Of a stretch of 32,000 nt of DNA, positions 1,241 through 20,717 are shown piece by piece. The notes under the pieces were generated by a model that was given only the letters and a program-made list of their open reading frames with translations, ran no database searches and was not told the origin of the DNA. The stretch's first letter is position 1. Each line of letters starts with the position of its first letter. A program made the translations under genes and the position numbers. Source of the DNA: Candidatus Saccharimonadota bacterium (GTDB taxonomy: Bacteria; Patescibacteriota; Microgenomatia; UBA1406; GWC2-37-13); assembly GCA_016432445.1 (NCBI GenBank), contig CP066689.1, forward strand, positions 990,001-1,022,000. The letters are read 5' to 3'.

Positions 1241-4200
1241 TCAAGCTGGCACAGTTTTATCCCCCACTTTATTATCTCTCCAATTTGGATCAGCCGCTTC
1301 ATGTTCAGAATATCCTGGTTTGTTATTATAATTTAGTGATCTAAATTCATTCAGCTTATATTTTAAAGCATTTGTGCCTGGCCGTCTTGGAGCATTTTCA
1401 GGCTTACCTCCACTTTTTTTAATCCTGTTGTTTTCAAATTCTTGCCATCGAGGATCGTCAGCTAGTCTTTTTAAAATTTCTTCTATTTCTACCTGCGAAT
1501 CTCCATAAATTGCCACCCGCGCATCAGTCGGAAGTAATCCATCATATTTACCTAATTCTTTGTTTGTTTCGCCAACCTTATAAGCTCCCATTAACCATTT
1601 GAAGTCTAATCGGTCATGTCTTTTTTTCCTTTCCTCGCCAACCTTCATCAAAAGATCCAGCACTCCTGGAAAATCTTCAGGTTCAATCATAAGGTAACCT
1701 CTAAAAGCATGATCGCTATCACTTTTTATTGGAGATCCATAAACTATCCTTTGCCACTTAAATTTGTTATCCACTCCCGTTGAAAATAAATTTTCTTGTA
1801 TCTCCCCGTTTCTCGCTTTCTCTTCAAATTGATCATAACGGTCTCTTATAACCTCTTTCAAATCACCAGGGTTGTCTTCTATCACTGATTGAGCTTCTTC
1901 TGTTTCGTTTTCTGATGGCTTAGTTTGCGGTAAAGGGGCTTTTTGTTCTCTTAATGTTTTTAAAAGCCCAGCTACATCAACGCTGTGGGACAAGAACTCA
2001 ATCCAGCGGATTTGATAGCCAGTCAATTTCCCAGCATTCAAACTCTCTTGCAAACTTTTGATTCTTTCCGACCACATTGTCTTTAATCCTTCATTGTTTA
2101 CTGTTAGTACCTGCTTCCCTGGCTCAAGCGAATTATAAGATAATAAAACATTATTAGCTTCATGATTCTTAAATGATTCAACATCATTTATTTTAAAGAG
2201 AAGTAATGATGATGGTTCCATTTCCGGCACATCATCTCCTTGCGCCTTTAACCACTCGCCCAATAGAGCTGGATTATTTTTATGAACTTGCAAAACCACA
2301 TCAGCTAGGTGTTTATAAAGCAAGGCTTGTTTAGCTGCAGTTTCAGCTGAAGCGGCTGATACAGCCAATAGTCCTGAATCATTTTTAGTTACGGCCTCAC
2401 CATTTATAAATCTTTGATCATTTTTGCCTCTTTCTGGAGTATCAGTCAAATCCCAAGCCCACGGCACAACCTTATCATTAGTCTTCCATTCTAGTTTTTC
2501 CTGACCCTCTTCAGTCTTCTTTTCAACTATAAAAAAAGGCTGTTTAGACTCAAGAGCTTTTATTTGCTCACCAGCTAAATTAAATCTGTCCGGAACATTT
2601 TCAATATAATATCCATTTTCTTTATTAACCGGTCCTGTGATTCTTTCAAAAATTGCCTGCAGCTGCAGCTCTTCGGAACTCTTAATTTCCGGCTTTTCTT
2701 CCTTTTTCTCTTTCAGACTTGATTCCAACTCTTGCAACTCGTTTTCTATTTCTTCAAGTTTTTTTTCTTCTTCTTTAGTTCGGTTAGGTTTCTTTCTTAA
2801 TTTTTCAGCTGCTTCCTGCAGATCTTTCATTTTTTTCTCCTGGTCGGAAGGACCTGGTTTAGGAGGATTAGGTTTTCCTGTTTGTCCTGGCCGGCCAGTC
2901 TGATCTGAAGGTGTACTTGTTTCCGGAGGTACCTCACCGACTCCAACACTTCTTTCAATATTTTGTCTGGCAGGGAAAGGAACAAAGAACATATCATCAA
3001 AATTTAGCTGATCCAATCCAAAGATTGGAGGACGAAGATTAACAATAGGTGTAGTTACTGTCACATTATCTTTTATAGAATCATTAAGATCAATTATTGA
3101 AAATCCTCCTGGTCCCTCAATACTGACTCCTCCTGCGCCTCTTATTGTGGCAAAAGCCTGTAAAGTCGGATAACCATCCCAAGTAGTTATACTGCCATCA
3201 GGATTGTGGATTTGACCTCCATTTGCTACTAAGCGGCCCGCTTCAATAAACCCCATCTTGCCATCAGCCCCTATATTAAATACATCTTGTCTACTATTAA
3301 GTTCAGTCGCAATATTTCCATCAGACAGACTGGAAAAAGCCTTTTTATTTATCAGCATATTACCGATTTCGCTCATTGATACAGATTGTCCATTTGGCAA
3401 AGCAACCATATGAGTATGATCATTAAGATCAATTGTTACCTTACCATCAATTACTCCATCGGCGCCATCAGGTATCCAAAATGGCTTACTCGCAAGCCCC
3501 GGAACGCTAATAGCCATACCTGCTTGACCATCTTTAATAACCTGCCCAACATCTATTGGATTAGGATTCAAACCTGTTTGGGTTGCTGTCCCCATCTTAC
3601 TCATATCTAATATCAACGTATCTCCTTCTTTAAAGGTATAAAGTCTTAACTCATTGCCTTGTGATTCTGGCTGGTCATAAGAATACCATTCGCGGTGATC
3701 AATTTTTGTTCCCATTTTTTCCCACTCAGCGGCGGCAGCCGGACCATTTATCACTTCTCCACCTCCAGTTTTAGAAAGATCGATTTTTAAAGCCGCATTC
3801 ATTGAATCAGCTCCGGTTATTTTGCCAGCTGCATCAAAGTGAGTGTTGTCTATGAGAATTTTTCCCTTACCCGGGCCATTGGCCACAATCAAATCCCAGT
3901 TGCCTTGAGTATCTTTCGTCCAAGCAGTACCTTCTGGTATTTGCGTATGGATTGTTTTTCCGCTTGCCAAAGTAATATCACTGTCAACTAATTTATTATT
4001 ATCCGCCAAAATTACTTCTTCTCTTGTTTCTGTAACCGGAGTTCCAGGAGATGAAGCAAAATCTTTTAAAGGCGAAGCCGGATCATTTAATCCAATTGTC
4101 GCTCCTGTTTTTTCATTAACTAAAGCAATATTAGGAACTCCATTATTATCAACTTTGGTAAAATGATAATCTGTCAGATCGTAGACATTGCCCGTCTTAG

Positions 4201-7200
4201 TATCAACCAAGTAATCGCCTCCACCTGGCAACTGTTCGTGTCTTACTCCAGCTCCTAGATTGATATCGACGCCATCTATAGTCTCGCGATGGAGCGGTAA
4301 TTCATCAATCGGCCAGTGTGGTACTTCAACAAAGCCTCTCACCTCTAATACTCCTTTTTGCAAAGGTGTCAAATCAGAGACAGCATGCCCGCCTAGATTG
4401 CGGATCGGTACATGTCCCCCCAGCACATCTCCCCAGTTTTTAGTGTACTGCTGAAAACCCTCTTGCAATAAATGCTGCCCTTCGGCTATAACTGGCACAG
4501 CCGCTAATGAAGCCCCCCCTCCCATAATCGCTGTTTTGGCAACCGTTTTTCCAAATCCCCGCCAATGTAATCTATTTGATATGCGTGATGCTTCACGTAG
4601 TGATCTACCATCATCAACGGTAATACGAAATTTTGGAAGGTCAGTCATAACACTATTAATATCAGCCTCTGACATATTCAATCCATTTCTCAGCCATCCT
4701 CTGATATTTTTCTCATCGTTACCCATTCTCAGTTGAGCTTCAATTACCGCAACTGACCTGTCAAAGACACCTAATCTCTGCTGTGCTCGAGGACGATACT
4801 GAATGTCTCCCCAGGTATCACCGGCCAGAAGGGTTTGAGATAATTTACTTCGACCATTCAAAACAGCGCTTTCTAAACGGCGTTGTTGTTCAACTAATTT
4901 TCCTTCCTCAAAACCAACAAAATTTTGAGTCATGTAGCCTAATTCGCGCGTATTAGATAGTTGAGTTAAGCGCATTCTGGCGCGAATCTCAGCGACCCGG
5001 GCAAAAAGTTGTTGCTGTTCTTCCTGACTTAATTGCTGTTTTTTAAGAAGTCCATTATCACCCTCCAAACCTTGCAGTAATTCTTCTGCCGATTTCATCC
5101 CCACCAATGCCCGAGACAATTCCAATCTAATGCGGGCGTCATTCGGAGTTATCCGACCTTCGGCCATTTCTTTTGATAACTGACTTAATTCCCTAGTTAA
5201 TCTTCCTCCAACGCCAAATTTTCCTACTCTAAATCCTGATTCTTTAAAACCGGCCATGAAGCTTACTCCAACCACACCACCGGCACTACGAACTAACGTA
5301 CTTGTTCCAAACATGGCTCCTGAAGCCACCCATCCAAGAGCATAAGCTCCTCCATACGTTCCAATATCTTTAACTGCAGCTAGTGCTCCAGCAAAACCTC
5401 CCCGTCCATCATACCATCGGTTTTCTCTGTTAACCAATCTTCGAGCCAGTCTTTCCACTAAAAATCCCGATTCTACTCCGCCTCTAACATTTCCAAATTC
5501 TCCTCTTCCATAAAGAATATTCAATTTGAGTTCTTCCCATTTGGTTTTGCCGCTTTCCCCTTTTTCAGTTTGATATTGGTTCCAGTTATTTTTTACAGCT
5601 TCGGCAATGTCTAAAATATTTCCACCTGCTCCAGGAGCATTTATTTCGTTTCTTAAATTAGCCGGAACCAAATTTCTAAAATCAGCAGATAAAAAATAGT
5701 TATCTACTTCAGCGACCAATTGTTCATCGGTTAAAGTACCAGCTGAATAACGGGCAATCATATCTTTTATTCTTCTATTTACCTCTATACTCGCTTCAGA
5801 GGGAAGTTGATAGCGAGACTCAGTTCTTGGGTCTAAAATTCTGTTGGCTTCAGTTAATGTTAGTCCACTTAAATTGGCATATCGCCTTCCTAATTCAGTC
5901 TGTTCTTTTAATATTCCTTTAGTATCCAATCCAATCTGATCTTTCCATTGATCTTTATTAATACTTCTTAACCATTTTTTAGCAAAAACTTGTTCAGAAT
6001 TTTGACCAATACCAAATAAACCATTTAAGGTTGAATCCCAAGCTTTCCATAAACCCCTTTGCAAAAATCCTTGACGACCCCTCATTGATCTTCCTTCAAC
6101 TAAAGCCTTGTCCATAATATCGTTTGATACGTCAACAGGGATAGCTCTGGAGCCCATTTTATCTTTAAGGATGCTATCGAAATCAGCGGAAAAACGGGTA
6201 TGCTGCATCTCAAAAACTGTCCTCAAAATTGAATTTTGCCAAATAGCTTTTATTGGGTGTCTTAACCCCCACAAGATACCTCCAACTAAAGGTCTGTTCG
6301 GAGGCACTCCTATACGACGAATATCCTCTGCCATATAGTGCTTACCTCCTCTAAGCGCAGTATAAGTAGACTGATTTTGCAAAGCCACAAGCGCCAAATT
6401 CATCTCAGTTTTTAGTCCTTCTCCAGGTTTAATAGGCGCCGGAGGTATCGGCTTTGGTTCTGGATTTGGTTTTTCTCCGTCTCCATCACCTGGAGCTGGA
6501 TTAATATCTTCAGGACCTTTTTCTTTCTTTTTCTTTTCATCTTCATCATCTTGTTCAGTCTTTTTCTTCTTTTTCTTTTCATCATCGTCTTCATCGTCCT
6601 GTTCGGTTTTTTTCTTTTTCTTTTTTTCGTCCTCATCTTCATCATCTTGTTCAGTCTTCTTCTTCTTTTTCTTTTCATCATCGTCTTCAATCACTTCCTC
6701 AAGTGAGCTTGGACCCTGTCTTCTTGCTTTAAAGTAAATTTTTTCTTGACTGCCACCGCCTTGACTTTGAGACTCGGATGTATAAGATATACGCCTTTGC
6801 ATAAGATCAGCGCCTTTTAAAGCAAAATCAAGAATATTCAATTCTTTATCTTTCAGTAAATTCTTCATTTCCTCAAGTCTAACTGTTTTCAGTTTCTTTC
6901 TTAAATTTTTTTCCTCTTCATCTGTTTTAATTTCGCCTTTTGCTTTACGATCTTTAATCTCTTTATCAATTCTTTTATCACTCCATCCTTCTCTGAAACC
7001 GGTCGTCTGAACTCCTTTATACTGTTCCACCAACCCTCCAACACCTTTTTGTCTTAATGTTTCTCTTACTTCATTTAGCTTTCCATACATTTGAGTTAAA
7101 ACTTGATCTTTGGCTGACTGCGTCGAAGGATCTGGATTTACGTATTTTGGTTGATCAAGAGTTCTTATTGCCTCAATCATCATTGTGTAAAAATGAGATC

Positions 7201-7951
7201 GCAGCGAAACTAAAGCTCGGCCTGCCTGATTTTTCTCAACTTTAGAAGACTTATCGGAATTCATTGTTTCTTCTAATTTTTTCATTTGATCCCGGTAAGT
7301 TTGTGTTTCTCCAGCTTTCTGAGTGGCGGGATCAGCAATATCAAGTAGCCGGTCAGCCACCAAAGTCATTGAGTACAAATCGCCTTGAGGCATCTCACTC
7401 GGATGTCCATTTTCATCAAAGTAATGATCGTATGGTCCCTCAACATAAGAAGGCTGACCTACATGAGCAACCTGTTTTTTTACGTCTCTTCTAAAAACTT
7501 GTCCTAATTCACTGGCTTCCTCCTCTTTTCTTATCCGATCATTTTCAACCTGAGTACCAATTATTTTGTGAGCCTCAACACCCATTAAAACAAATGGGTC
7601 GCGGTTGGCATCAATATTTGTGGTTACGAAATCAAATATTTTGTCATTTTTACCAATATACTTTTCCCCGTGACGTAATCTATCTTCGACTTCTTTCATT
7701 ACTCTAAGTTCATAGGCAGATTGTGATTCACCACTATTTTTAGGAATTAAGGATTGAACGTTAGTTATTATTTCACCTGCAGCCTTAAAGTCTTTTGAAA
7801 ATTTTGCTTTAAATTCCTGAGCTGTAACTGCAGGTTCGTCTTTTTTGTCAATTAAATTTAAATAAAGTTGGCGTTTTTTTTCCGTAGAGGGAACTCCTGG
7901 TTTTATATCCGGAGCAGGAAGTGGTAAGCCTTGTCCTTCTGTTGGTTTCAT
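1241..7951 (-). CDS. Giant (2236 aa) multidomain protein of unknown function, probably envelope-associated
   Basis: Uninterrupted 6.7-kb ORF. It has no N-terminal signal peptide. It contains a charged K/D/E tandem repeat, two Gly/Ala-rich hydrophobic segments (nt ~5245-5405 and ~4475-4550), a beta-rich Gly/Asp/Asn/Thr region (nt ~2990-4470), a Pro-rich linker, a coiled coil and a C-terminal module shared with the 1170-aa protein. Confidence 0.85.
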   Translation of the reverse strand: MKPTEGQGLPLPAPDIKPGVPSTEKKRQLYLNLIDKKDEPAVTAQEFKAKFSKDFKAAGEIITNVQSLIPKNSGESQSAYELRVMKEVEDRLRHGEKYIGKNDKIFDFVTTNIDANRDPFVLMGVEAHKIIGTQVENDRIRKEEEASELGQVFRRDVKKQVAHVGQPSYVEGPYDHYFDENGHPSEMPQGDLYSMTLVADRLLDIADPATQKAGETQTYRDQMKKLEETMNSDKSSKVEKNQAGRALVSLRSHFYTMMIEAIRTLDQPKYVNPDPSTQSAKDQVLTQMYGKLNEVRETLRQKGVGGLVEQYKGVQTTGFREGWSDKRIDKEIKDRKAKGEIKTDEEEKNLRKKLKTVRLEEMKNLLKDKELNILDFALKGADLMQRRISYTSESQSQGGGSQEKIYFKARRQGPSSLEEVIEDDDEKKKKKKTEQDDEDEDEKKKKKKTEQDDEDDDEKKKKKKTEQDDEDEKKKKEKGPEDINPAPGDGDGEKPNPEPKPIPPAPIKPGEGLKTEMNLALVALQNQSTYTALRGGKHYMAEDIRRIGVPPNRPLVGGILWGLRHPIKAIWQNSILRTVFEMQHTRFSADFDSILKDKMGSRAIPVDVSNDIMDKALVEGRSMRGRQGFLQRGLWKAWDSTLNGLFGIGQNSEQVFAKKWLRSINKDQWKDQIGLDTKGILKEQTELGRRYANLSGLTLTEANRILDPRTESRYQLPSEASIEVNRRIKDMIARYSAGTLTDEQLVAEVDNYFLSADFRNLVPANLRNEINAPGAGGNILDIAEAVKNNWNQYQTEKGESGKTKWEELKLNILYGRGEFGNVRGGVESGFLVERLARRLVNRENRWYDGRGGFAGALAAVKDIGTYGGAYALGWVASGAMFGTSTLVRSAGGVVGVSFMAGFKESGFRVGKFGVGGRLTRELSQLSKEMAEGRITPNDARIRLELSRALVGMKSAEELLQGLEGDNGLLKKQQLSQEEQQQLFARVAEIRARMRLTQLSNTRELGYMTQNFVGFEEGKLVEQQRRLESAVLNGRSKLSQTLLAGDTWGDIQYRPRAQQRLGVFDRSVAVIEAQLRMGNDEKNIRGWLRNGLNMSEADINSVMTDLPKFRITVDDGRSLREASRISNRLHWRGFGKTVAKTAIMGGGASLAAVPVIAEGQHLLQEGFQQYTKNWGDVLGGHVPIRNLGGHAVSDLTPLQKGVLEVRGFVEVPHWPIDELPLHRETIDGVDINLGAGVRHEQLPGGGDYLVDTKTGNVYDLTDYHFTKVDNNGVPNIALVNEKTGATIGLNDPASPLKDFASSPGTPVTETREEVILADNNKLVDSDITLASGKTIHTQIPEGTAWTKDTQGNWDLIVANGPGKGKILIDNTHFDAAGKITGADSMNAALKIDLSKTGGGEVINGPAAAAEWEKMGTKIDHREWYSYDQPESQGNELRLYTFKEGDTLILDMSKMGTATQTGLNPNPIDVGQVIKDGQAGMAISVPGLASKPFWIPDGADGVIDGKVTIDLNDHTHMVALPNGQSVSMSEIGNMLINKKAFSSLSDGNIATELNSRQDVFNIGADGKMGFIEAGRLVANGGQIHNPDGSITTWDGYPTLQAFATIRGAGGVSIEGPGGFSIIDLNDSIKDNVTVTTPIVNLRPPIFGLDQLNFDDMFFVPFPARQNIERSVGVGEVPPETSTPSDQTGRPGQTGKPNPPKPGPSDQEKKMKDLQEAAEKLRKKPNRTKEEEKKLEEIENELQELESSLKEKKEEKPEIKSSEELQLQAIFERITGPVNKENGYYIENVPDRFNLAGEQIKALESKQPFFIVEKKTEEGQEKLEWKTNDKVVPWAWDLTDTPERGKNDQRFINGEAVTKNDSGLLAVSAASAETAAKQALLYKHLADVVLQVHKNNPALLGEWLKAQGDDVPEMEPSSLLLFKINDVESFKNHEANNVLLSYNSLEPGKQVLTVNNEGLKTMWSERIKSLQESLNAGKLTGYQIRWIEFLSHSVDVAGLLKTLREQKAPLPQTKPSENETEEAQSVIEDNPGDLKEVIRDRYDQFEEKARNGEIQENLFSTGVDNKFKWQRIVYGSPIKSDSDHAFRGYLMIEPEDFPGVLDLLMKVGEERKKRHDRLDFKWLMGAYKVGETNKELGKYDGLLPTDARVAIYGDSQVEIEEILKRLADDPRWQEFENNRIKKSGGKPENAPRRPGTNALKYKLNEFRSLNYNNKPGYSEHEAADPNWRDNKVGDKTVPA
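6518..6690. repeat. In-frame 48-nt (16-aa) tandem repeat, about 3.5 copies, encoding EKKKKKKTEQDDED[DE]D
   Basis: The TTGTTC[AG]G landmark recurs at 6551, 6599 and 6647 (period 48). The protein reads DDDEKKKKKKTEQDDEDEDEKKKKKKTEQDDEDDDEKKKKKKTEQDDEDEKKKKEKG. The copies differ at several nucleotide positions. Confidence 0.9.
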
Positions 7952-8111: not shown

Positions 8112-11100
8112 ATGACAGAAGCAATTAATCCCTCCCAGGAAAATAAAACTCCGTCTCTAGAAAATACTGTCAATCGGATCGTCTCTCCCCTTTCAGCATC
8201 AACCGAAGGAGGATTACGTCTTACACCGTTAAATAAAGAGCTAACTATTGATCAAGTTAAAAAAGCCACAGCTTTTAAAGTTGGAGATAAAGAAACTAAT
8301 GTCCCTGACTATTTAAAAGAAAATTTGCAAAGAATATTAGGACTTCGGCCTAATACACCAATCAGTAGTCAAGATCAGCTAAAAATAGTTGAACATCTTC
8401 TTGAAGAAATCGCCAAAAACCCGATTGCAGTTGAAAAGGATATCAAATCAAAGCTTCCGGATATAGGCTATAAAATTAATATCCCTGAGATAATTGCTTC
8501 ACTTCAAGTTGTTGGAGTTGAGGCTGCACAACAAGAATATCTTTCAACTCAATCTACGTTTACTACTAAAGAGGTGTCTGCCGGTTGGAAAACAACTGAC
8601 AACACATTTGGAAAAGGCAGCCGGAGAAAACTTTATACCGAAATGAGCGGTTTTGGAGACGAGGTTGTTTTGGGAGGCGAGAGCATGAAAGGAATAACTA
8701 AAGTTGGAGAAAAGGTTGTTATAGAGCCTACAGTTGAAATGGATTTACGTCTGGCTCAAGTTTTATTTAATACTGCCTTACCTCCAGAATATTCAGTCAA
8801 GGTTGCCCAACTTCAACAACAAGTTGCAGCAGAAAAAGACCCTCAGCTTAAAGATCAAAAAGCTCATGAACTAACACTACTCCGGCAAAAGCTTTATAAA
8901 TCAGTATTGGTCGCTTTCAATACGCAAACGGAAAAAGCTGGCGAGATTAAAGCTGAAAACAACGAAAAAGATGAAATTAACAGCATTGCTGACCAAATAA
9001 AAAAAAGAATGACAGAGGTCAAAAAAGGCGGTTTAAGTCTTCAACACATGGATATCCAAGAAGCCAATAGAGCTAGTATTTCTGAGACGGCAAATTATTT
9101 GGGTGTTTCTACTGAAGGACAAAACTTAATAGATAAAGGATGGGAAAATATTTTGATGAGTGTCCATGCCGGTGAAAAAATGAATGTTGCCGTACACAGA
9201 TTTTTGCAAGATCTTGCTTTTGAAAATGTTTCTGCTGATAACAAAAATATTTTTGAAAAAATATTAGCTAACCGTTTAAGGACGGCCATGAGTATAAGCG
9301 GTATTGAAAATTATTACAAAGAATATAATGTTGGCATTAAGCCGGAAAATATCAGCCTTTCTCTCTTTTTATCAATGGGAGTAAAAGGAACGGAACTCCT
9401 TTACAGAAGAACCCAGGGTGAAGAAATTATAGTAAAAACTCCAGAACCAGTAAAACCAGAACTTCCTGAATGGCTTAATCCAAAGATCAAACTTTTAAAA
9501 ACTGAACAACCAGAACAGATGGCTGATATCTTAAAGAAGCTTAAGGAAAAAAGCAAAGACGATGAGTCAGGTATTGATGAAGCTACTGCTGTAGCCAAAC
9601 CTGAGATTGAAGAAGCCATCCCAATCGTTCAGACAGCGAGCTCTGAAGCTGACTCAAATAAGTTTAACTATCGTACCCTAGACTTAACTTTTGAACGTCA
9701 TTTGCCATCTAATATACCAGAAACAGAAAAATCATCCGTTCATGAGATAGGCAGAAACATAGTTAAAGCAATTGTAACTGAGACTGAACTTGGTAACTTA
9801 ACAGAAAACTATAGAAACGTCATTCTTAATGCCGCTGCCCTAAATTCAGCAAACTTACTTACTCCCCTGATTCCTGGTGATGAAAGAGGTAAAAGACTAG
9901 TAACTTCCAAGTCTCAAGCAAATAAAGCTTTAGCCGAAAAAGTTCTTCAAGCTTACACAGAGGCTGAACCAGAAAGGATCGCCCATGAGGGACGTAAATT
10001 AAGTATTGAAGATTTTGTTGAAATAAAAAGAACTTACGATTCTTTAAACTACACTCCACCGACTATTGAATCTCTTTTAGAAGGGCCTTTAAAGGGTGGA
10101 GCTATTCCTCAGCAACTACTCCGAGGACTAGTATTGCAAAGAGAATTTAATCGACGGTTTTTGGATAATTCAATTTCCCTACTTTCTCTCCCCCATGAAG
10201 ATAGAAATTTTGAGAGTCTCAATCTTATCGCTCAAATGACGGCTTTGCAAATTTTTAAAGAGATAGATTTGAAAACTTATCATTTAACATCACACGGCCC
10301 AGTTCCTTTAACGCCAAATAATACTGATTTATTTTTAACTTGGGATAGAGTAAAAAATACCCCAGCCATCGAAGTAGTGAGATTTTACAACCGTCCCCGC
10401 GAACCCATTACTGAAGCCTCCTCCTCAGCCGGCCCGACTATTGCAGTAGCTGATCAAACAGAAGGTGAAACTACGGGTGAGGAAGCAGTAACATATATTC
10501 CAGATGAAACTGAAGAACCTTATTTTGACGATCAACATGCTGTAAGAAGAGAAACAAATAGACAAAGACGGGCAGAAAGAGAAGGAAAAAATAAAAGAGA
10601 ACGCCAAAAAATAAGACGACCAAGAAGAGGTCCGGAAGAAGAGGTCTCTCCCGTAAATCCTCCTGTAGTTGAAGCCACTGAGGAAGCTTCTGCGGCGGTA
10701 TCCGCACCATCAACCGAACGTAAGCTTCCTGATTGGCTTTTTATGAAAGAGCCTGAATCTTCAGCTGAAACTAATGCCACAGTTACAACGGCTGAAAAAA
10801 GAGAACTACCAAGCTGGCTCACGGATGAAGAGCTAATTGCTAAAGATCGAAAAATTGCAGAAGCTCAAGCGGCAGTAGCAACTCCAACCGAAGCCGCTGA
10901 AGATATATTTGCCAAGCTAAGACGGGAATTAGATGAAACTGATAAAAAAGTTGCTTCCCCTGACGATGGGGAACTCCCGGCCTTCTTGAGAAACCGCGCT
11001 CAACCATCTCCTGAAGAACACAAAGAAACAAGCGCGCCAGCAGAAGCAGAAGCCGCTGTAACTATACCAAGCAATGAAATTAAAGCTAACGAAACAAAAC

Positions 11101-12347
11101 AAATTTCAGACATTGAATTTATAGCTACAGACACTAATAAAGGCAATTTATCTCTTTTAGATAAAAGCTCAGCCGATATCACTTTAAATCAAGGTCTTAT
11201 TCAAGGGTGGAACGAGTCCTCAACCCACATAGATATTAATGAAGGCACTGTTGTTGGAAGTCAGTCGAGTTCTTTTTATGTTGCTGATGACAGGGGCGGA
11301 GAGTATACCTTCTCAGACAGCGATGCTCTTCTTTTTGCAGGAGAAACTTTTAATAAATCAAAAGTTGATAGACCAAACGCAATCTTTACACTCCCCTCTC
11401 TTCCTAATGCAGAGGATATATTAACTACCGATGTCCCAAGTTTTAATGCCTATTATGCCGGTTTAGGCCGCATGATTTATGAAACACGCGGAACAAGATA
11501 TTTATTTGAAGAGGCAGTCAACGATAAACAAAAAGCCATAGCTATATTTGAAATTAGAGAGACTATTAATGAAGACGGAAAAAAAGAACATAAATTAACC
11601 TTTGTTGACGGAAGAAGAGTTGAAGATAAAGATGATCTAGTCGAAAGATTTATGTCTAAAACTAATGCTAATCTGCTTCAGCCTGAGTTGGAAGTAGCTT
11701 TAAATGATCTCTCTGCTCCTAAAGTAGAACCTAGTCCAGCTGCTAAAACTGAAGATAAGGATAAAGAAAGATTATCCCTTCGCCAACGGTTGGCAGGAAA
11801 ATTAAGATTAAGATTCGGAAGCCACGATTCTGAAGAAACACCTGAAAGGAAACAATTAAAAAAAGGCATAAAAAGTTTAGATGAACTTGCTGCCGTAATC
11901 GATCAAAACACAGAAAAATTTCATTTAACTAAAGAGCAGGAAGATCAATTAATTGAAGTTGACTATCCTAAGCATATTAATGATGGTTATCCAATCGAAG
12001 TTTTAGGAGACGTATTAATCAGCTGGACTCGCCTTTTTGAACCCCAAGTAGAAAACCATGAAGTGATTGAAAGAAAAAACGCTATTCTTCATGATTTAAT
12101 AGACAAAGTTTTTGGTGATAATCCGCCTGATCACCCCGCCATAGTAGCAGATCTTTTGGTTGATTTGTTTAAGGACGATATTATAAGTAAAAGATATAAA
12201 AAAGTAGCTGAGTATATAGAAAAAATTAATAAACCAGGCGTAAAATACGAACCTAACTCCAGTACTAAGAAGGAACTTCAGGCATTATTAAGTGCTTTGG
12301 ATATTACTTCAAAATATATTCCTTTTAGGTCTTCAACCCCTATTTAA
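8112..12347 (+). CDS. Giant (1411 aa) protein with no predicted TM segment, carrying repeated [LV]P-x-[WFY]-L motifs including an FtsZ C-terminal-peptide-like sequence; function unknown
   Basis: Uninterrupted 4.2-kb ORF with no hydrophobic segment. An acidic/Ala/Thr-rich, disordered-looking region (~nt 10380-11100) contains an Arg-rich stretch and the motifs KLPDWLF, ELPSWL and DDGELPAFLRNR. Further copies are ELPEWL (9459-9476) and NVPDYLK (8298-8318). Confidence 0.85.
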   Translation: MTEAINPSQENKTPSLENTVNRIVSPLSASTEGGLRLTPLNKELTIDQVKKATAFKVGDKETNVPDYLKENLQRILGLRPNTPISSQDQLKIVEHLLEEIAKNPIAVEKDIKSKLPDIGYKINIPEIIASLQVVGVEAAQQEYLSTQSTFTTKEVSAGWKTTDNTFGKGSRRKLYTEMSGFGDEVVLGGESMKGITKVGEKVVIEPTVEMDLRLAQVLFNTALPPEYSVKVAQLQQQVAAEKDPQLKDQKAHELTLLRQKLYKSVLVAFNTQTEKAGEIKAENNEKDEINSIADQIKKRMTEVKKGGLSLQHMDIQEANRASISETANYLGVSTEGQNLIDKGWENILMSVHAGEKMNVAVHRFLQDLAFENVSADNKNIFEKILANRLRTAMSISGIENYYKEYNVGIKPENISLSLFLSMGVKGTELLYRRTQGEEIIVKTPEPVKPELPEWLNPKIKLLKTEQPEQMADILKKLKEKSKDDESGIDEATAVAKPEIEEAIPIVQTASSEADSNKFNYRTLDLTFERHLPSNIPETEKSSVHEIGRNIVKAIVTETELGNLTENYRNVILNAAALNSANLLTPLIPGDERGKRLVTSKSQANKALAEKVLQAYTEAEPERIAHEGRKLSIEDFVEIKRTYDSLNYTPPTIESLLEGPLKGGAIPQQLLRGLVLQREFNRRFLDNSISLLSLPHEDRNFESLNLIAQMTALQIFKEIDLKTYHLTSHGPVPLTPNNTDLFLTWDRVKNTPAIEVVRFYNRPREPITEASSSAGPTIAVADQTEGETTGEEAVTYIPDETEEPYFDDQHAVRRETNRQRRAEREGKNKRERQKIRRPRRGPEEEVSPVNPPVVEATEEASAAVSAPSTERKLPDWLFMKEPESSAETNATVTTAEKRELPSWLTDEELIAKDRKIAEAQAAVATPTEAAEDIFAKLRRELDETDKKVASPDDGELPAFLRNRAQPSPEEHKETSAPAEAEAAVTIPSNEIKANETKQISDIEFIATDTNKGNLSLLDKSSADITLNQGLIQGWNESSTHIDINEGTVVGSQSSSFYVADDRGGEYTFSDSDALLFAGETFNKSKVDRPNAIFTLPSLPNAEDILTTDVPSFNAYYAGLGRMIYETRGTRYLFEEAVNDKQKAIAIFEIRETINEDGKKEHKLTFVDGRRVEDKDDLVERFMSKTNANLLQPELEVALNDLSAPKVEPSPAAKTEDKDKERLSLRQRLAGKLRLRFGSHDSEETPERKQLKKGIKSLDELAAVIDQNTEKFHLTKEQEDQLIEVDYPKHINDGYPIEVLGDVLISWTRLFEPQVENHEVIERKNAILHDLIDKVFGDNPPDHPAIVADLLVDLFKDDIISKRYKKVAEYIEKINKPGVKYEPNSSTKKELQALLSALDITSKYIPFRSSTPI

Positions 12348-12352
12348 CAATA

Positions 12353-13561
12353 ATGGAAAATTCTTCATCAACTTTATCTAGTACTGATAAAGGAGAAGTT
12401 CGTCGAGTCTTATCAATAGCAGAAAGGCTAAAAAATAATCCACCAAAAACTAAAGGGGAAAATCATTTTTCAGGTAGGTTTCGGCCGATTTATTCAGCCA
12501 AAGAAGAAAAAGAAAGAAATGCGGTGGTTGACCAGCCTAATAAAAGGCTTTTATTGAAGGCTATTGGCGCGGGCGCTATTCTTGCAGTTAGTGGAGGTTT
12601 AGCATTAAAAGCACTCGGTTCCGATAATACCCCCTCCGTAAGGGCCGAACCAAACCCATCAGCCATACCTTCACCCGCAGCAGAAACTACTGCTATAGCC
12701 GCAACTGAGAAACCTGAAACGACACCGGAGCCGCCTAAAGAAAGAGGCGGTATCCTTACCCCGGAAGAACTTGTTGACTATAGTCAGGTCATAGAATTCG
12801 TTGGCAAACTCCGGAATAGCCATGATTCGGTTTTATCCGAATCGCTTTTTACCAAAGAACTGGCAGGATTTTCTACTGAAAAACGTCAAGAAGTATTGAA
12901 AGCCATAGCCAAAGCTCATGCGCAAGCTCTTGTTGAATATTATGGAGATAATGAAGCTATTATTGGCCTTGATCCGGGTCATGGCTCATCTGATGTAGGT
13001 TCATCCGGAACAACCCCAGAAGGGAAAACTATCGCTGAAAAAGAACTCACCTGGGAAGTAAGTCAAATGTTAGCTGAAGAACTTAAAACTTTAAGCCATA
13101 ACCGTTATTTCATTGTTATTTTACGGCCTCACGATCCTCAAGACCGGGATTTAGATGGCGATGGAACAATTGCGCCGGTTGAAAGAATCCAAAAACGCAA
13201 GGCTTTACTTATGAAAATGGAACAAAAACTGCGCGATAAACCGGAAGATATAGGCAAAAATATTCTTTATTTATCAATGCATTTTAACGGATCATCCGAT
13301 CCAAATCAGGGCGGAGCCGAAATGTATTGGCCAAACAGCTTTGCCGTCAAAGATGATAATCATCGCCAAGCCAGTGAAGCACTAGCTAAAAGTATTCAAG
13401 ATAAAACCGTGACCGCAATTAGAAAAACTGGCTATAATACATTTGACCGCAAGGCAAAAGAAGATCCTGACAAAAATATGCCTACCGGTAACATAAGTCA
13501 AGTGGGGCCTTACCTAGTTCTGGGATCACCTCGTCTTGATAATCTTCTTCAAAAAGCCTAA
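12353..13561 (+). CDS. Membrane-anchored N-acetylmuramoyl-L-alanine amidase (Amidase_3 family)
   Basis: Amidase_3 signature: IGLDPGHGSSDVG (Zn His), EKELTWEV (Glu), YLSMHFNGS (Zn His), GAEMYW. It has an N-terminal cytoplasmic peptide, one TM segment (LLLKAIGAGAILAVSGGLALKAL) and a Pro/Thr/Ala linker. It starts 5 nt after the upstream gene. Confidence 0.85.
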   Translation: MENSSSTLSSTDKGEVRRVLSIAERLKNNPPKTKGENHFSGRFRPIYSAKEEKERNAVVDQPNKRLLLKAIGAGAILAVSGGLALKALGSDNTPSVRAEPNPSAIPSPAAETTAIAATEKPETTPEPPKERGGILTPEELVDYSQVIEFVGKLRNSHDSVLSESLFTKELAGFSTEKRQEVLKAIAKAHAQALVEYYGDNEAIIGLDPGHGSSDVGSSGTTPEGKTIAEKELTWEVSQMLAEELKTLSHNRYFIVILRPHDPQDRDLDGDGTIAPVERIQKRKALLMKMEQKLRDKPEDIGKNILYLSMHFNGSSDPNQGGAEMYWPNSFAVKDDNHRQASEALAKSIQDKTVTAIRKTGYNTFDRKAKEDPDKNMPTGNISQVGPYLVLGSPRLDNLLQKA

Positions 13562-13570
13562 ATTTAAATA

Positions 13571-14968
13571 ATGGAATACTCTGAGCGAGTCTTATCTATT
13601 GCTGAAAGATTAAAACAACCTCCGACTCCGCCAACTACGGCCGAAAGATTGAAACAAAGACAACAAGAAGGTCAAAGATCTTTACCTCAACTAAACCGTA
13701 TCTATTCAAAGGAAGAGTTAAAGCGGATGAATTACACTCCAATTCATCCAAAAACAGGAATAAAGATTGCTTTAGCTGGAATGACACTGCTGACGATTGG
13801 CTTAGCGGCCGAGGCTTCCCTTAATCCAACCGTCCCCACCGTAAGCGCTAATCCTGAACCAACACGACCCGCTCTAACCGCGACAGCCACCGCCTATAAA
13901 CCTCCTTTAGATATTATCTATCCCCCATCTTCCCCCACGGCTATCGCTGAAACTGCTGCCGCAGTCAATACACCTGAAATCAAAAAAAAGAAAGATCTTC
14001 TCAGTGAAGCCGCTCATTCATTTTATGCGAAAGCTCAAGCAAAACGAAATGAACGCGCAAAAAAAGATCCTGATTATCTTACCCGGATCAATCCTGAGTT
14101 AAATAAAAACCGGATTAATTTTCTGTCTCTGGGTATAGGTAAAGAAGGAGCTTTAACTGACTCCATTCAAGTTATATCTTATGATCTTACTTCAGGAAAT
14201 TTATCAATGATTTCCTTGCCGCGTGACCTTCAATCACCTGAAGTTCTTAAAGCTTATGGAGGAGACGAACGCAATTCCCGTATCAATCAGGCTTTAACCA
14301 AAGGCGGTATAGATCTTTCCCAGCTGGCGGTTGAAAATGCAACCGGCTTGTCTATGGATTTTGTGATGGTTAACCGCTTTGAAATCCTTACGAAAATTAT
14401 TGATAAAATTGGCGGGATAGAAGTCGATGTAGACAAGGATATTGATGATAATAACTATCCCGCTCTTGAAGGCGACGGCTATGACCCTTTCCATATTACC
14501 AAAGGCCATCACCTTTTAAATGGTTATGACGCTTTAAGATATTCCCGATCCCGTTACAGCACCAGTGATTATGACCGGTCTAAAAGACAACAAAAAGTGC
14601 TGGAAGCCCTTATTAAAAAATATGCCGAAGAAATGAAAAAAAATCCCTTAAAAGCAGCTGGCCTCATAAAAGATACTCTTGGCATCATTAATGAAGAAGT
14701 AAATAGCGGAAAACTGAAGGCTGATTTTGATATCGGCGATATTTCCGGACCCATTATTTCACTTATTCCCTCGCTTATTGGAGGCGCTCGTTTTGAAATG
14801 CCGCCAACCGCCCACTTTACGGTTGATACTTCAAACTTTGTCGTTAGCGCCTCTCTCCCGGGCATAGCCATAACCAAGATTAAGGGAGGCAATGCTCACT
14901 CTGGCAACCCACGGCAAGATTATTGGGGTCCATTACGTCCGGCTGTTAAAGAATTTCTTACACGCTAA
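13571..14968 (+). CDS. LytR-CpsA-Psr (LCP) family cell-envelope polymer transferase, membrane-anchored
   Basis: LCP core pattern: INFLSLGIGKEGALTDSIQVISYDLTSGNLSMISLPRDL...INQA...GG...VNRF...IGGIEVDV...LNGYDALRYSRSRY..SDYDRSKRQQKVL. It has an N-terminal peptide and one TM segment (IKIALAGMTLLTIGLAA). It starts 9 nt after the amidase stop. Confidence 0.85.
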   Translation: MEYSERVLSIAERLKQPPTPPTTAERLKQRQQEGQRSLPQLNRIYSKEELKRMNYTPIHPKTGIKIALAGMTLLTIGLAAEASLNPTVPTVSANPEPTRPALTATATAYKPPLDIIYPPSSPTAIAETAAAVNTPEIKKKKDLLSEAAHSFYAKAQAKRNERAKKDPDYLTRINPELNKNRINFLSLGIGKEGALTDSIQVISYDLTSGNLSMISLPRDLQSPEVLKAYGGDERNSRINQALTKGGIDLSQLAVENATGLSMDFVMVNRFEILTKIIDKIGGIEVDVDKDIDDNNYPALEGDGYDPFHITKGHHLLNGYDALRYSRSRYSTSDYDRSKRQQKVLEALIKKYAEEMKKNPLKAAGLIKDTLGIINEEVNSGKLKADFDIGDISGPIISLIPSLIGGARFEMPPTAHFTVDTSNFVVSASLPGIAITKIKGGNAHSGNPRQDYWGPLRPAVKEFLTR

Positions 14969-17204: not shown

Positions 17205-20200
17205 CTATTTTGTTTCCTCAAACAACAAACCGGGCATGTGTTTTCTTCTTAAAGGTTTTGATAAAGTGTCAACATTCTGGAAAGTTTCAGTACGACTAGG
17301 TGTAAAACGGCGCATCTTTTTATATAAGGGTTCTATTCCATCTTTAAACGTATTTATACTAACAAACTGGCCTGTTGCTGGATCTTTTTCAAAATGTTTT
17401 CCGTAAAATTGAGTTCCCATTATCTCCGCACCCATTTTAGGAAGATCATTGGAGTCGTAACTAACTATCGAAGGCATCTCAACTAAACCTGTAGATTCAT
17501 CAAGCGGGATATTAAAATGGACCATTAAGTTAGACCTTACTTTTGCCTTTTCCTGCGGATTAGTAATCCAATACTCAGGATGTTTTTCCTTAGCTCTTTC
17601 CACTGCAGCCGCAATCTTTTTCATTGCTTTTGGATCTTTACCACGATTGTAAATTATTATATTATTGTTGTTGTAATGACTTTCTGGAGACTCTTGTAAC
17701 GCTCCATAGTATAAAGCTAAAGTCGTATAGGCCCAAACATCTTCGTTTTTTAACTCCTCAAATAAAGACAAATATGCTTCTGGAGCGTGGCGATTATGGA
17801 CATAAAAATAAACTCGGGTTATCGGCCGCTCTTTTTTTGTTTCTTCAGTTAATCCGCCAATTTGTAATTTTTCAACCTCCGTTGCATCACGACAAACAAA
17901 GGGAAGTTTTTTGTCAGCTCCATATTCTTGTGGCATTTCTTTTCTTAGTTTTTCAACTCTGTCTAAAGCTTCTTTGTTAAGCCTAACTACTTCATCTTTC
18001 TCTATTGGCGACGGATCGCCTGTTTCTGCTTTTAATCTGTTTATCTCAGCCATTTGGTATTCAATCATTTGGGCATACGATATATTATTTAAAGCTCTTC
18101 GATATTTTTCATAGCCAACCCTTTGGATCTCCTCAAAGCCCCGACCGGCGATAACATTTTCCATATCAACTTCATCTTTAAACTCAGGAAAAATAGATTC
18201 GGCAATGGCAATGGTTTTCTCCCAATACTCTTTCATTTTCACCTCATCATCCAAACCATAGCCTCGTCCAAATTGGCGCAAGTTCTTTTTTTGTTCTTCA
18301 GTAATAGTCTTTGATCTTAGGAATTTATTAAGTATAGGAATTACTTCTTTTTGTTTAGCCAATGGTAAACCATCAAACTTTTGACGAAGTTCCTTTAAAC
18401 GATCTTCATAAAAACCCAATGTTTGGTCATTAATTGATAATGTATAACCGCCATCTCTTAAATATTGGGTAATGGCCAGTGAATCATCTATTTTCATTAA
18501 TTTTTCAACATTGGGCTCATTTGTTACCTTTTGATAAAGAGGATAACCATTCTTATACGGGTAAAGAGGGTCATCAGATTTTTTAGGTTTAATTAAATTC
18601 TTAAACCCGATTATATCTTGATTAAGATATTGTGTAGGCACCCAATGTATAAACCCTCCTAAGGCTAACTGCTTTAAAATATTCCCATGAGATTCTACAG
18701 CCCAAATATTACCAGGTACAGAATCACTGTCTTGAGTCCTTCCAAAAGGCGTTGGGGCTTTAATAATTGTAAAAGCGTTACCATTTTCAATCTCTTGAGG
18801 AGTAAATTTAGTAGCATCTTCAGCGTACATAACAACAGTCCTTTCTCTCCCGCCCCAATCAAATTTAACTACTCTTTTTCCCCCTTTACCTAAAATTCCT
18901 TCTGTTTCATCTGAAATTATTTTTCCACCAATTTTTTGTATTGTTTCATCAGGAAGATAATCATTCCTTAAAGAACCATCTTCATTTATATACACATAAT
19001 CAGTAAAGACAAACTTATCAGCATTAGTAAATGCTAGAGAATAGGCGATATCGCGTCCTGAGCCGGGATAGTAAACCGGTAAACCATTTTTTATAACCTC
19101 AGAATTAGCCGCAATATCTCTGATTTGAGAAGCATTTTCCCATAATTCTTTCGTCGTAAACCATGAAGGATTATCCTTTAGTTTTTCCCAATCAGCATCT
19201 GGTGTTTCTTTATATTCTCTTCGTGGTTTGATTCTGATTCCAAAGTCCTGCTCGAATTTTTTCAATCCCTCTATCTCTTCAGGTTTCAAATCAGATCTAA
19301 AACCATTACAAAGTAGCCCCATATACAATGAATACCCTACGCAGTTAATATTATCGTGCGGCTTTTGAAGTACTGGAAAAGCGTTATCTGGCAAATCTTG
19401 GATTAAATCATAACTTTCGCCTGAACAAATCTTTTCAATTAATTTTGGATTAGTCTTTATTTCCCACTCCTTTCTATCAATTTTAATATTTAGGTTTAGG
19501 CCACGATATACGCCATCCGCTTGTTTATGCGCATGGACAAAAGGATTATGAGCTTCATCAAATTCATCAGCTATTAGCTCCGTTTTACCCTTATATGGGT
19601 CATAAGTTATCAATCTCCATTTGCCGTTAACATCCTTCGTCGGTGCCTTTAATAGAAAAGTCTGATGCCACATTCGTTGTCCCTGACCATTCAATATAGC
19701 CATAGGAAGATTGTATCTTTCAGCTGCATTAAATACTGCGTTTTGATCCATTAATCCCCGCGGATTAGGCACTAACCATCTATTAATAAAAGCTCCAACA
19801 TCAGTTATTTCATCACTATTTCTTAATTGTTGGATAAAGGCTTCTGCTCCGCGCTTAATACTTTCCGGATCATCAGCGGAGATCTCAATAATCTCCTTTT
19901 TTGTTTCATCTTCTTTTGTTTTCGTTCGATTTTCTTTTTGCTGAGTTTTTGATGTCGTAATCTCTCCCGTTCTACCATTCCATACGAAAGTTAGTAATCT
20001 TTTTTCTTCATCTGTTAATCTATTGATTTTAGATTTTTCTTGGGTTTCAACTTGAGTCTTTTCATTAACTTGGGTGATAAATGCTTGGCGTAAATCAGTT
20101 TTTTGAACTTTAACTTCAGCATCAATAAGCTGAGTTAAAACTTCAGATGACGTACCCCCAAAGATTTTGGCTATCCATTTGATAGCCGGAAGATCTTGTT

Positions 20201-20717
20201 TTAACTTCTCATAATCTATATTTTGCCCATCAGCATAGGCCTGAACCACCTTACTAATAAATGTTTGAACTTGAGACGCTTTATTATCCCCTTGGAAATA
20301 AGTTGAGTATAGATTTTCAGCGTCATTAATTGTAAATTGCTGTGAGTTTATTCCTATCTTCTCAAAAAATTTATCCCATCCAGCATTGTTGAAATACTCT
20401 TTTGAAGTTTGAAAAGCTGAGGTAGTTTGTTCAAGCCATAATTTCTTTTGCGCTTCAAAACCTTGTACATTTTGACCTCTCCAATAATCTTTTCTTTCCC
20501 TAGTTGAAGCAGTAGATAAATATTTGTAAGTGGTTTGTTCTCTTACCACAAGACTAACTGAGAGTGAGTTCTCATCCAAGTCAGGCATATCATGATCTGG
20601 ATTTAGTGCTTGTCCTCCAAGAAGCAGTCTTGACTGTAAACCAATTAACCCTTTTTTAAACTGAAGCCGTTCAGGTATTTTTAATGCATCAGGAGCTGGA
20701 ACAGGATTCTCTGACAT
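17205..20717 (-). CDS. Giant (1170 aa) multidomain protein: central CE-clan cysteine-protease-like domain, a Rossmann-like GxG module, and a C-terminal module shared with the 2236-aa protein
   Basis: Uninterrupted 3.5-kb ORF. Candidate catalytic residues are His351 (MWHQTFLLK), Asp373 (LITYDPY), Gln451 and Cys459 (LQKPHDNINCVGYSLYMG; Cys codon = complement of 19341-19343). The Rossmann-like motif is VYYPGSGRDIAYSLAFTNADKFVFTDY. The C-terminal module begins ITRVYFYVHNRHAPEAY...IIIYNRGKD. Confidence 0.85.
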   Translation of the reverse strand: MSENPVPAPDALKIPERLQFKKGLIGLQSRLLLGGQALNPDHDMPDLDENSLSVSLVVREQTTYKYLSTASTRERKDYWRGQNVQGFEAQKKLWLEQTTSAFQTSKEYFNNAGWDKFFEKIGINSQQFTINDAENLYSTYFQGDNKASQVQTFISKVVQAYADGQNIDYEKLKQDLPAIKWIAKIFGGTSSEVLTQLIDAEVKVQKTDLRQAFITQVNEKTQVETQEKSKINRLTDEEKRLLTFVWNGRTGEITTSKTQQKENRTKTKEDETKKEIIEISADDPESIKRGAEAFIQQLRNSDEITDVGAFINRWLVPNPRGLMDQNAVFNAAERYNLPMAILNGQGQRMWHQTFLLKAPTKDVNGKWRLITYDPYKGKTELIADEFDEAHNPFVHAHKQADGVYRGLNLNIKIDRKEWEIKTNPKLIEKICSGESYDLIQDLPDNAFPVLQKPHDNINCVGYSLYMGLLCNGFRSDLKPEEIEGLKKFEQDFGIRIKPRREYKETPDADWEKLKDNPSWFTTKELWENASQIRDIAANSEVIKNGLPVYYPGSGRDIAYSLAFTNADKFVFTDYVYINEDGSLRNDYLPDETIQKIGGKIISDETEGILGKGGKRVVKFDWGGRERTVVMYAEDATKFTPQEIENGNAFTIIKAPTPFGRTQDSDSVPGNIWAVESHGNILKQLALGGFIHWVPTQYLNQDIIGFKNLIKPKKSDDPLYPYKNGYPLYQKVTNEPNVEKLMKIDDSLAITQYLRDGGYTLSINDQTLGFYEDRLKELRQKFDGLPLAKQKEVIPILNKFLRSKTITEEQKKNLRQFGRGYGLDDEVKMKEYWEKTIAIAESIFPEFKDEVDMENVIAGRGFEEIQRVGYEKYRRALNNISYAQMIEYQMAEINRLKAETGDPSPIEKDEVVRLNKEALDRVEKLRKEMPQEYGADKKLPFVCRDATEVEKLQIGGLTEETKKERPITRVYFYVHNRHAPEAYLSLFEELKNEDVWAYTTLALYYGALQESPESHYNNNNIIIYNRGKDPKAMKKIAAAVERAKEKHPEYWITNPQEKAKVRSNLMVHFNIPLDESTGLVEMPSIVSYDSNDLPKMGAEIMGTQFYGKHFEKDPATGQFVSINTFKDGIEPLYKKMRRFTPSRTETFQNVDTLSKPLRRKHMPGLLFEETK

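Follow-up and report, generated by a model that had tools for sequence, protein, structure and literature searches.

Repeated short peptides, one resembling the FtsZ C-terminal tail, in the disordered linker of a giant patescibacterial protein

A 32,000-nt stretch of contig CP066689.1 (hereafter the window) from a member of Candidatus Roizmanbacteria (candidate phyla radiation, CPR, or Patescibacteria) encodes a 1411-aa protein in which a short Pro-aromatic-Leu motif recurs five times, three of them within a linker that appears disordered. The linker motifs are real and probably serve for docking, in what would be a new scaffold of the CPR cell envelope. At the level of sequence, the last copy (motif 5) is a genuine look-alike of the C-terminal peptide of FtsZ, the central hub of the bacterial divisome, whereas the other copies share its L-P-x-aromatic-L core only.

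Results

A scan of the 1411 residues with the pattern [LVI]P.[WFY]L found exactly five sites (aa 64, 451, 872, 899 and 955). All five had been put forward as FtsZ-tail mimics in an earlier reading of this DNA (the original prediction), whose nucleotide coordinates proved exact. The gene and its motifs are as follows.

8112..12347, + strand: open reading frame (ORF) of the 1411-aa cytoplasmic multidomain protein (QQG44217.1, 'hypothetical protein HYW86_05155')
8298..8318, + strand: motif 1, NVPDYLK (aa 63-69), a predicted structural element (strand, then helix start)
9459..9476, + strand: motif 2, ELPEWL (aa 450-455), at the C-terminal edge of the N-terminal domain, with the strand PKIKLLK next
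10722..10742, + strand: motif 3, KLPDWLF (aa 871-877), in the disordered linker, with a predicted one-turn helix at 874-876 (model confidence, pLDDT, ~30)
10803..10820, + strand: motif 4, ELPSWL (aa 898-903), in the disordered linker, with a predicted helix (905-921) directly after
10962..10997, + strand: motif 5, DDGELPAFLRNR (aa 951-962), like the FtsZ C-terminal peptide, with a predicted one-turn helix at 957-959

The motif is non-random and, within the window, specific to the 1411-aa protein. Composition predicts 0.09 copies of this pattern, which was set post hoc, against the five observed, and four or more copies arose in none of 200,000 shuffles. For LPxWL alone, three copies were observed against 0.004 expected (at least two copies in 0 of 200,000 shuffles), and three of the protein's eight Trp residues fall in motif copies; the earlier argument that three LPxWL copies are unlikely by chance, given the rarity of Trp, is borne out. 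The other 18 ORFs of the window (~8,600 aa) contain one strict match, and none lies in the other giant proteins (2236 and 1170 aa). That match is the LPxFL at the true C-terminus of a DUF218 protein (28309-29373, + strand), which ends '...SLRRLPPFLISI'. It is missing in the orthologue at a related locus (L086), and 'RRLPPFLISI' was accordingly rejected as a sixth copy and is probably a chance occurrence. The five copies differ in codons and flanks, similarity being confined to motifs 2 and 3, whose 15-nt cores agree at 14/15 nt. Recent internal duplication was rejected as their origin on these grounds, so the peptide itself appears to have been selected.

The FtsZ C-terminal peptide (termed CTC or CCTP) comprises eight residues, of which Asp, Pro and Phe are fully conserved, and takes a short helix on FtsA and ZapD (PMC9939409). 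We scanned the 1411-aa protein, ungapped and with BLOSUM62, against the real tails of E. coli FtsZ (C-terminus KEPDYLDIPAFLRKQAD, checked in the reference sequence) and B. subtilis FtsZ (DIPTFLR followed by NRNKRG; bioRxiv 10.1101/459685). Motif 5 came top, scoring 34 against shuffle maxima of 17.6 +/- 3.6 (P = 0.0006-0.0012). Set against D-[IVL]-P-x-F-[LM]-[RK], its E-L-P-A-F-L-R-N-R keeps Pro, Phe, Leu and Arg, and the changes of D to E and I to L are conservative. The proposed match of motif 5 to the FtsZ peptide thus stands as significant against real tails, with P about 0.001. A phmmer search with the motif 5 peptide found no match among PDB sequences, an uninformative result, since the E. 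coli tail used as a control finds only E. coli-like and P. aeruginosa FtsZ and the method lacks the sensitivity that peptides demand.

The resemblance to this 'grappling hook' (E. coli DYLDIPAFLRKQAD; B. subtilis DIPTFLRNRNKRG) extends beyond the aliphatic-Pro-x-Phe-Leu-Arg core to an acidic prefix, a basic suffix, a preceding disordered linker rich in A/T/S/P/E and a predicted short helix, and the 1411-aa protein is tied by genomic context to septal-type wall enzymes. Unlike FtsZ, however, the protein is no tubulin homologue, and its motif is internal and present in several copies; motif 5 has Glu for Asp, and the other copies have Trp or Tyr for Phe and often Lys or Asn for the acidic residue. 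The FtsZ peptide moreover binds FtsA, SepF, ZipA, ZapD, MinC, SlmA and similar proteins, of which motif 5 is a candidate ligand. We rejected the idea that the protein is itself an FtsZ: Pfam and NCBIfam scans detected no tubulin/FtsZ domain, the motifs are internal and repeated, and motif 5 lies 450 residues from the C-terminus. A second hub peptide, the C-terminal tip of SSB (…DDDIPF), has an acidic-Ile-Pro-Phe arrangement and needs an extreme C-terminus with a free carboxylate. Motif 5 similarly has an acidic run and then aliphatic-Pro-(x)-Phe (PDDGELPAF), but it is internal and continues with LRNR, and the SSB-tip reading was rejected.

The 1411-aa protein matched no Pfam and no NCBIfam families in profile scans. 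It has no hydrophobic stretch long enough for a transmembrane (TM) helix or signal peptide and was therefore treated as cytoplasmic. Its regions are listed below, with homologues designated P0001 onward.

8112..9566, + strand: conserved N-terminal domain (N-domain; aa 1 to ~485), from the family alignment; mean pLDDT 78 in AlphaFold2 (AF2)
10362..11111, + strand: disorder-like linker (aa ~751-1000) bearing motifs 3-5, from composition, AF2 pLDDT and the lack of an alignable homologue
10452..10631, + strand: adjacent charge blocks in the linker, acidic (aa 781-810, net -11) and basic (aa 811-840, net +11; RRETNRQRRAEREGKNKRERQKIRRPRRG)
11112..11711, + strand: beta-rich domain (aa ~1001-1200), ending '...FVDGRR' and common to P0002, P0008, P0012, P0013 and P0019
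11829..12344, + strand: C-terminal helical region (aa ~1240-1411) with the signature 'L..V/ILxD/E..I.W'

Two AF2 models were made, one of aa 1-500 from a 15-sequence family alignment and one of aa 1-1200. Outside the N-domain the alignment is shallow and low pLDDT is weak evidence of disorder, with which the composition agrees. Helices are predicted to make up most of the N-domain, which also has a small alpha/beta subdomain at its N-terminus. In the aa 1-500 model, motif 1 opens helix 64-70 of this subdomain right behind strand 60-63 (pLDDT ~85-88), and motif 2 makes a single helical turn (453-455), with strand 459-465 coming next (block pLDDT 83-84) and the segment before the motif (aa 437-446) being of low confidence. 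In the model, then, motifs 1 and 2 are structural parts of the folded N-domain, or docked on it, and not free peptides. Most residues of aa 785-1000 have pLDDT 26-46 in the aa 1-1200 model, and residues 751-990 have a disorder-type composition. Isolated one-turn helices are predicted exactly at DWL (874-876) and AFL (957-959), without a rise in confidence. These results agree with the earlier description of an acidic A/T/S/P-rich disordered linker preceding motif 5. The wider claim of five mimics is narrowed by them: motifs 3-5 lie in disordered sequence as proposed, but motifs 1 and 2 are folded (pLDDT 83-88). Intramolecular docking of motifs 3-5 would be expected to raise their confidence; no such rise appeared in the aa 1-1200 model, a weak negative given the shallow alignment.

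Among the remaining regions, helix 808-825, within the charge blocks of the linker, is predicted at low confidence, and aa 1090-1200 of the beta-rich domain reach pLDDT 74-89. With Foldseek, neither model significantly matched a fold in PDB (the best E values were 0.75 with the N-domain and 0.16 with aa 1-1200), and the beta-rich domain had no match there either. Visual inspection shows the signature of the C-terminal helical region at the C-termini of P0001 and P0015 as well, and BLAST aligns the region only weakly with P0001. The linker also contains a weak three-fold repeat (nt 10680-10710, 10857-10887 and 11040-11070; 'EEASAAVSAPS', 'AEAQAAVATPT' and 'AEAEAAVTIPS') with a ~60-aa (177/183-nt) spacing and 65-74% DNA identity to the reference copy. 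Judged from its sequence, it could reflect an ancient internal triplication or Ala-codon bias.

The family is rare. An exhaustive search of 1.84 billion representative proteins yielded 18 representatives; among narrower searches, a word-index search with the whole protein gave two homologues and a profile of 15 N-domains gave one among the best 8000 candidates, and pattern scans of genome and metagenome contig collections confirmed no family relative. Only the N-terminal ~480 aa are common to all members. Across the family motif 1 keeps the form N-[LV]-P-D-[FY]-L-[RK], although the most distant members have Val or Tyr at the Pro position, a conservation pattern that fits a structural role. Motif 2 is kept as [EK][IL]P[DEP][WY]L-x-[PL]-KI in the close subfamily (P0001-P0004) only, the site being occupied by LPPE[IL]A-type sequence in other members.

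Strict motifs number 24 across 20 family proteins, against 2.8 expected. Copies outside the N-domain occur in the window protein (three), P0015 and P0019 (two each) and P0006, P0007 and P0012 (one each), and the motif census found no linker copies in P0008-P0011 and P0013. The P0015 copies are 'SELPPFLEDRRR' (ELPPFLEDRRR type) and 'QPLPDFLSK'; those of P0019 are 'RDIPAFLIE', which scores 27 in the tail scan, and 'VGVPDFLKG'. Both proteins carry them in Pro-rich or charged linkers at positions non-homologous to those of the window protein, as one would expect of short linear motifs (SLiMs), with their evolutionary plasticity. Relatives also contain protein kinase, PP2C, metallophosphatase and FkbM methyltransferase modules, and these cytoplasmic enzymatic modules support a cytoplasmic, scaffold-like architecture. 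In P0002 (locus L003), a different Trp-containing linker peptide, unlike LPxWL, is repeated at aa ~560-600 and 915-940 ('KPGESYPPGWPNLL' and 'KPGESFPPEWPNPP'), a hint that linkers in this family generally acquire short motifs particular to their lineage.

The 1411-aa gene lies beside a second giant gene and upstream of two wall-enzyme genes.

12353..13561, + strand: membrane-anchored N-acetylmuramoyl-L-alanine amidase (Amidase_3; QQG44218.1), downstream operon gene, 5-nt gap
13571..14968, + strand: membrane-anchored LytR-CpsA-Psr (LCP) protein (QQG44219.1), downstream operon gene, 9-nt gap
1241..7951, - strand: 2236-aa giant protein with its own conserved family, transcribed divergently from the 1411-aa gene

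We compared this arrangement with seven related loci. Downstream of the family gene lie an LCP gene (P0001, locus L004), an LCP-Amidase_3 fusion (P0004, L088), a gene for a 1872-aa Transgly/Transpeptidase/Amidase_2 protein, that is, a class A penicillin-binding protein (PBP) (P0013, L089), and a gene for an unannotated 841-aa protein with one TM helix (P0015, L086). The P0002 contig runs on into a PIN/RHH/integrase cluster and gives no downstream information; the P0019 contig shows downstream only a convergent PaaX_M gene, and the P0008 gene reaches the contig end. That the gene stands, in most of these loci, next to genes of peptidoglycan amidases, LCP enzymes or a class A PBP argues for a function in the growth or division of the envelope.

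A divergent upstream gene is present in five of the seven related loci, encoding a giant protein beside P0004, P0013, P0015 and P0008 and a truncated 173-aa fragment beside P0001; the P0002 and P0019 contigs begin too near the gene to show this neighbor. Four of the divergent neighbors are homologous to the 2236-aa protein of the window, directly or via the 2680-aa protein of L089, which carries PP2C_2; the relatives in L088, L004 and L090 are partial. The 1784-aa neighbor in L086 had no BLAST match. L086 shares synteny with the window in its Zn-ribbon, GalT-like, Pth and GT4 genes (47-70% identity), whereas P0015 is 26% identical to the 1411-aa protein over the aligned N-domain stretch (aa 192-434), which points to a fast-evolving positional orthologue.

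The N-terminal part of the 2236-aa protein echoes the N-domain of the 1411-aa family (DLYSMTLVADRLLD versus VEMDLRLAQVLFN; LRSHFYTMMIEAI versus LRQKLYKSVLVAF; LDFALKGADLMQRR versus FLSMGVKGTELLYRR). The hhalign match is weak (E 6.7e-4, 27% probability) and suggests that the two families may be an ancient paralogue pair. A third giant protein without Pfam matches (1170 aa; 17205-20717, - strand) has a ~240-aa N-terminal segment in common with an 838-aa protein of L086, and the latter has a further match in aa 1781-2012 of the 2236-aa protein. Modules are thus exchanged among the giant proteins encoded here. Two related records (L005 and L006) are titled 'uncultured Gammaproteobacteria' yet share the Zn-ribbon/GalT/Pth/GT4 synteny of the window at 52-64% identity, and P0013 and its class A PBP neighbor were deposited as 'Candidatus Aenigmatarchaeota archaeon'. 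The taxonomic labels of these and related records (L005, L006, L007 and L089) look unreliable.

The two downstream enzymes carry nearly identical peptides in their cytoplasmic N-terminal tails, RRVLSIAERLKNNPP in the amidase (nt 12404-12442, aa 18-30) and ERVLSIAERLKQPP in the LCP protein (nt 13583-13621, aa 5-17), the latter with a second 'TAERLKQR'. Each peptide is followed, after ~40-60 aa, by a single TM helix (66-89 and 62-84, respectively), leaving tails of ~60 aa. Downstream enzymes at related loci have doubled tail peptides of their own ('TFDFSGIK...VLDFSGII' in L004; 'ELRFAELDL...SKLDFSALKF' in L086). These may be docking peptides for the proposed cytoplasmic scaffold.

Discussion

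The best explanation of these observations, which we advance tentatively and at somewhat less than even confidence, is that the 1411-aa protein is a lineage-specific scaffold whose FtsZ-tail-type docking peptides ally it with the division layer and whose neighbors are wall enzymes that it would work with. Such a scaffold would be specific to Patescibacteria/CPR and cytoplasmic, with a disordered linker of ~240 aa joining the folded N-domain to a C-terminal beta-rich and helical module. The linker would display three copies of a docking peptide, [E/K]-L-P-x-[W/F]-L, each forming one helical turn from which Leu, the aromatic residue and a second Leu would reach into a hydrophobic groove on the partner, and three copies within 85 residues would provide avidity. 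That the linker motifs are binding sites of some kind is rather likely. Since DDGELPAFLRNR is of the FtsZ C-terminal peptide type, readers of that peptide form the likeliest class of partner, although FtsA and/or SepF as the actual partner remains a plausible but somewhat doubtful proposal. Binding would bring the scaffold, and hence the membrane-anchored amidase and LCP enzyme encoded downstream, to the division site. Alternatively, the scaffold might compete with FtsZ for the FtsZ anchors. CPR bacteria do encode ftsZ and ftsA, as in TM7x (PMC10768705).

Several observations weigh against this explanation. Two of the five motifs lie inside a folded domain. Motifs 1-4 have Tyr or Trp in place of Phe and Asn, Glu or Lys in place of Asp, and they score at background in the tail scan (13-15 for the Trp motifs); the proposal that the Trp variants are FtsZ mimics finds no support beyond the L-P-x-aromatic-L core, and these variants lack the conserved Asp and Phe of the FtsZ peptide (PMC9939409). 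Even for motif 5, P is ~0.001 per protein and ~0.007 over the ~10,000-aa window, a level that is suggestive rather than decisive, and the match could be a chance one in a scan of many windows. Conservation among homologues is divided: motifs 1 and 2 are conserved and distant orthologues have copies of their own, but the motif census found no linker copies in the four closest homologues (P0001-P0004), and the linker bearing motifs 3-5 has no alignable orthologue among the homologues. Finally, neither ftsZ nor ftsA lies near any family locus, and tblastn with E. coli FtsZ gave no match in the related loci retrieved.

One alternative, which we consider fairly unlikely, is that the linker peptides are stickers for self-association. 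They would bind a groove, filled in cis by motif 2, on the family's own N-domain or on the N-terminal part of the possibly paralogous 2236-aa neighbor, and would drive oligomerization, condensate formation or autoregulation independently of FtsZ readers. Consistent with this, motif 2 has the same L-P-x-W-L core and is predicted to dock at the edge of the N-domain (pLDDT ~83) after a low-confidence segment (aa 437-446), motif 1 too is built into that domain as a strand-helix element, the Trp copies are far closer to motif 2 than to FtsZ tails, and the neighbor's N-terminal part weakly resembles the N-domain (hhalign E 6.7e-4). However, the AF2 model of aa 1-1200 docks motifs 3-5 nowhere, with pLDDT flat there; their flanks are unlike that of motif 2 (the PKIKLL strand); and P0015 and P0019, which lack an aromatic motif 2, nevertheless carry linker copies. 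The groove, moreover, is itself a supposition.

The linker copies may instead dock to another partner, such as a protein peculiar to this lineage or the tails or domains that neighboring envelope proteins have in the cytoplasm, with the FtsZ likeness of motif 5 being convergent or coincidental. Significant likeness to FtsZ is confined to one of the three linker copies, lineage-specific partners are plausible for a protein whose N-domain and beta-rich domain have no known fold, and the gene is conserved beside another giant protein and envelope enzymes. Against this stand the lack of any candidate with a recognizable peptide-binding domain and the acidic-prefixed F-type copies in distant orthologues (DIPAFL, ELPPFLEDRRR), which would have to be repeated coincidences. 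On balance we judge this account improbable, though to be taken seriously.

It is distinctly less probable that the linker copies are functionless, that is, helix-start sequences that are fortuitous or drift neutrally in a low-complexity linker that evolves fast, so that only motifs 1 and 2 matter, and then structurally. Such a history would account for the lack of linker copies in P0001-P0004 and of a conserved linker in any homologue, and the pattern was, as noted, chosen post hoc. Drift is nonetheless hard to reconcile with three LPx[WF]L copies in 85 residues where 0.004-0.09 are expected. The strict acidic-prefixed pattern also occurs three times elsewhere in the family (P0006, P0015 and P0019, with the window protein and the N-domain columns left out) against ~0.3 by a rough composition estimate, and the differing codons and flanks of the copies speak against recent duplication.

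Some CPR bacteria, such as TM7x, are epibionts, and the FtsZ-tail likeness of motif 5 might accordingly mark an effector delivered into a host cell, where it would titrate FtsA or ZipA and block division; this host-targeted competitor, part of the original prediction, found no support and is very improbable: the protein lacks a signal peptide and a TM segment, its operon also encodes a membrane-anchored amidase and LCP enzyme that belong to the cell itself, its relatives include fusions to kinase, PP2C and methyltransferase modules of the cytoplasm, and no secretion-system genes lie alongside.

As a kind, the 1411-aa protein is a multivalent SLiM scaffold. Like other such scaffolds, it has short motifs (5-7 residues) that are enriched over chance and repeated in one disordered region, that orthologues may gain and lose at positions without homology to one another, and that are predicted to form a conditional one-turn helix. 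It differs in that both a receptor domain and binding by its family are hypothetical. The proposed scaffold also recalls divisome adaptors. In E. coli, the cytoplasmic Z-ring is coupled to periplasmic wall hydrolases by FtsEX-EnvC-amidase and by FtsA-FtsN logic, and the logic proposed here would similarly link a cytoplasmic reader of the FtsZ/FtsA layer, genetically, to Amidase_3-type cell-separation amidases and other wall enzymes. There is, however, no relation in sequence or fold; the protein is soluble and giant rather than an ABC transporter or a bitopic protein, and coupling would run, as we infer, through the enzymes' own cytoplasmic tails.

Cell division in CPR/Patescibacteria, whose members have small cells and reduced genomes and are in some cases epibionts, is largely unstudied. 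This work defines a previously undescribed protein family with a conserved gene neighborhood tied to peptidoglycan enzymes. At its most speculative, and with little confidence, we suggest that Patescibacteria such as Roizmanbacteria might possess a lineage-specific divisome or envelope organizer in the form of two giant cytoplasmic scaffolds, fast-evolving and encoded as a conserved divergent pair. The multivalent FtsZ-tail mimics in the disordered linker of one of them would plug into FtsA or SepF while the same scaffold held the tails of the amidase, LCP enzyme and class A PBP, coupling Z-ring position to wall hydrolysis and synthesis and replacing couplers of the FtsN and FtsEX-EnvC type.

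We found no precedent in the literature for FtsZ-tail mimics or these peptide strings in non-FtsZ proteins, and to our knowledge no non-FtsZ protein has been described with copies of the FtsZ C-terminal peptide. If the linker peptides bind FtsA or SepF, they would be the first case of endogenous FtsZ-tail mimicry. They would then hint at how a minimal cell couples its Z-ring to wall-remodeling enzymes, and would offer natural Trp-for-Phe peptide variants with which to probe or inhibit the interface between FtsZ and its anchors.

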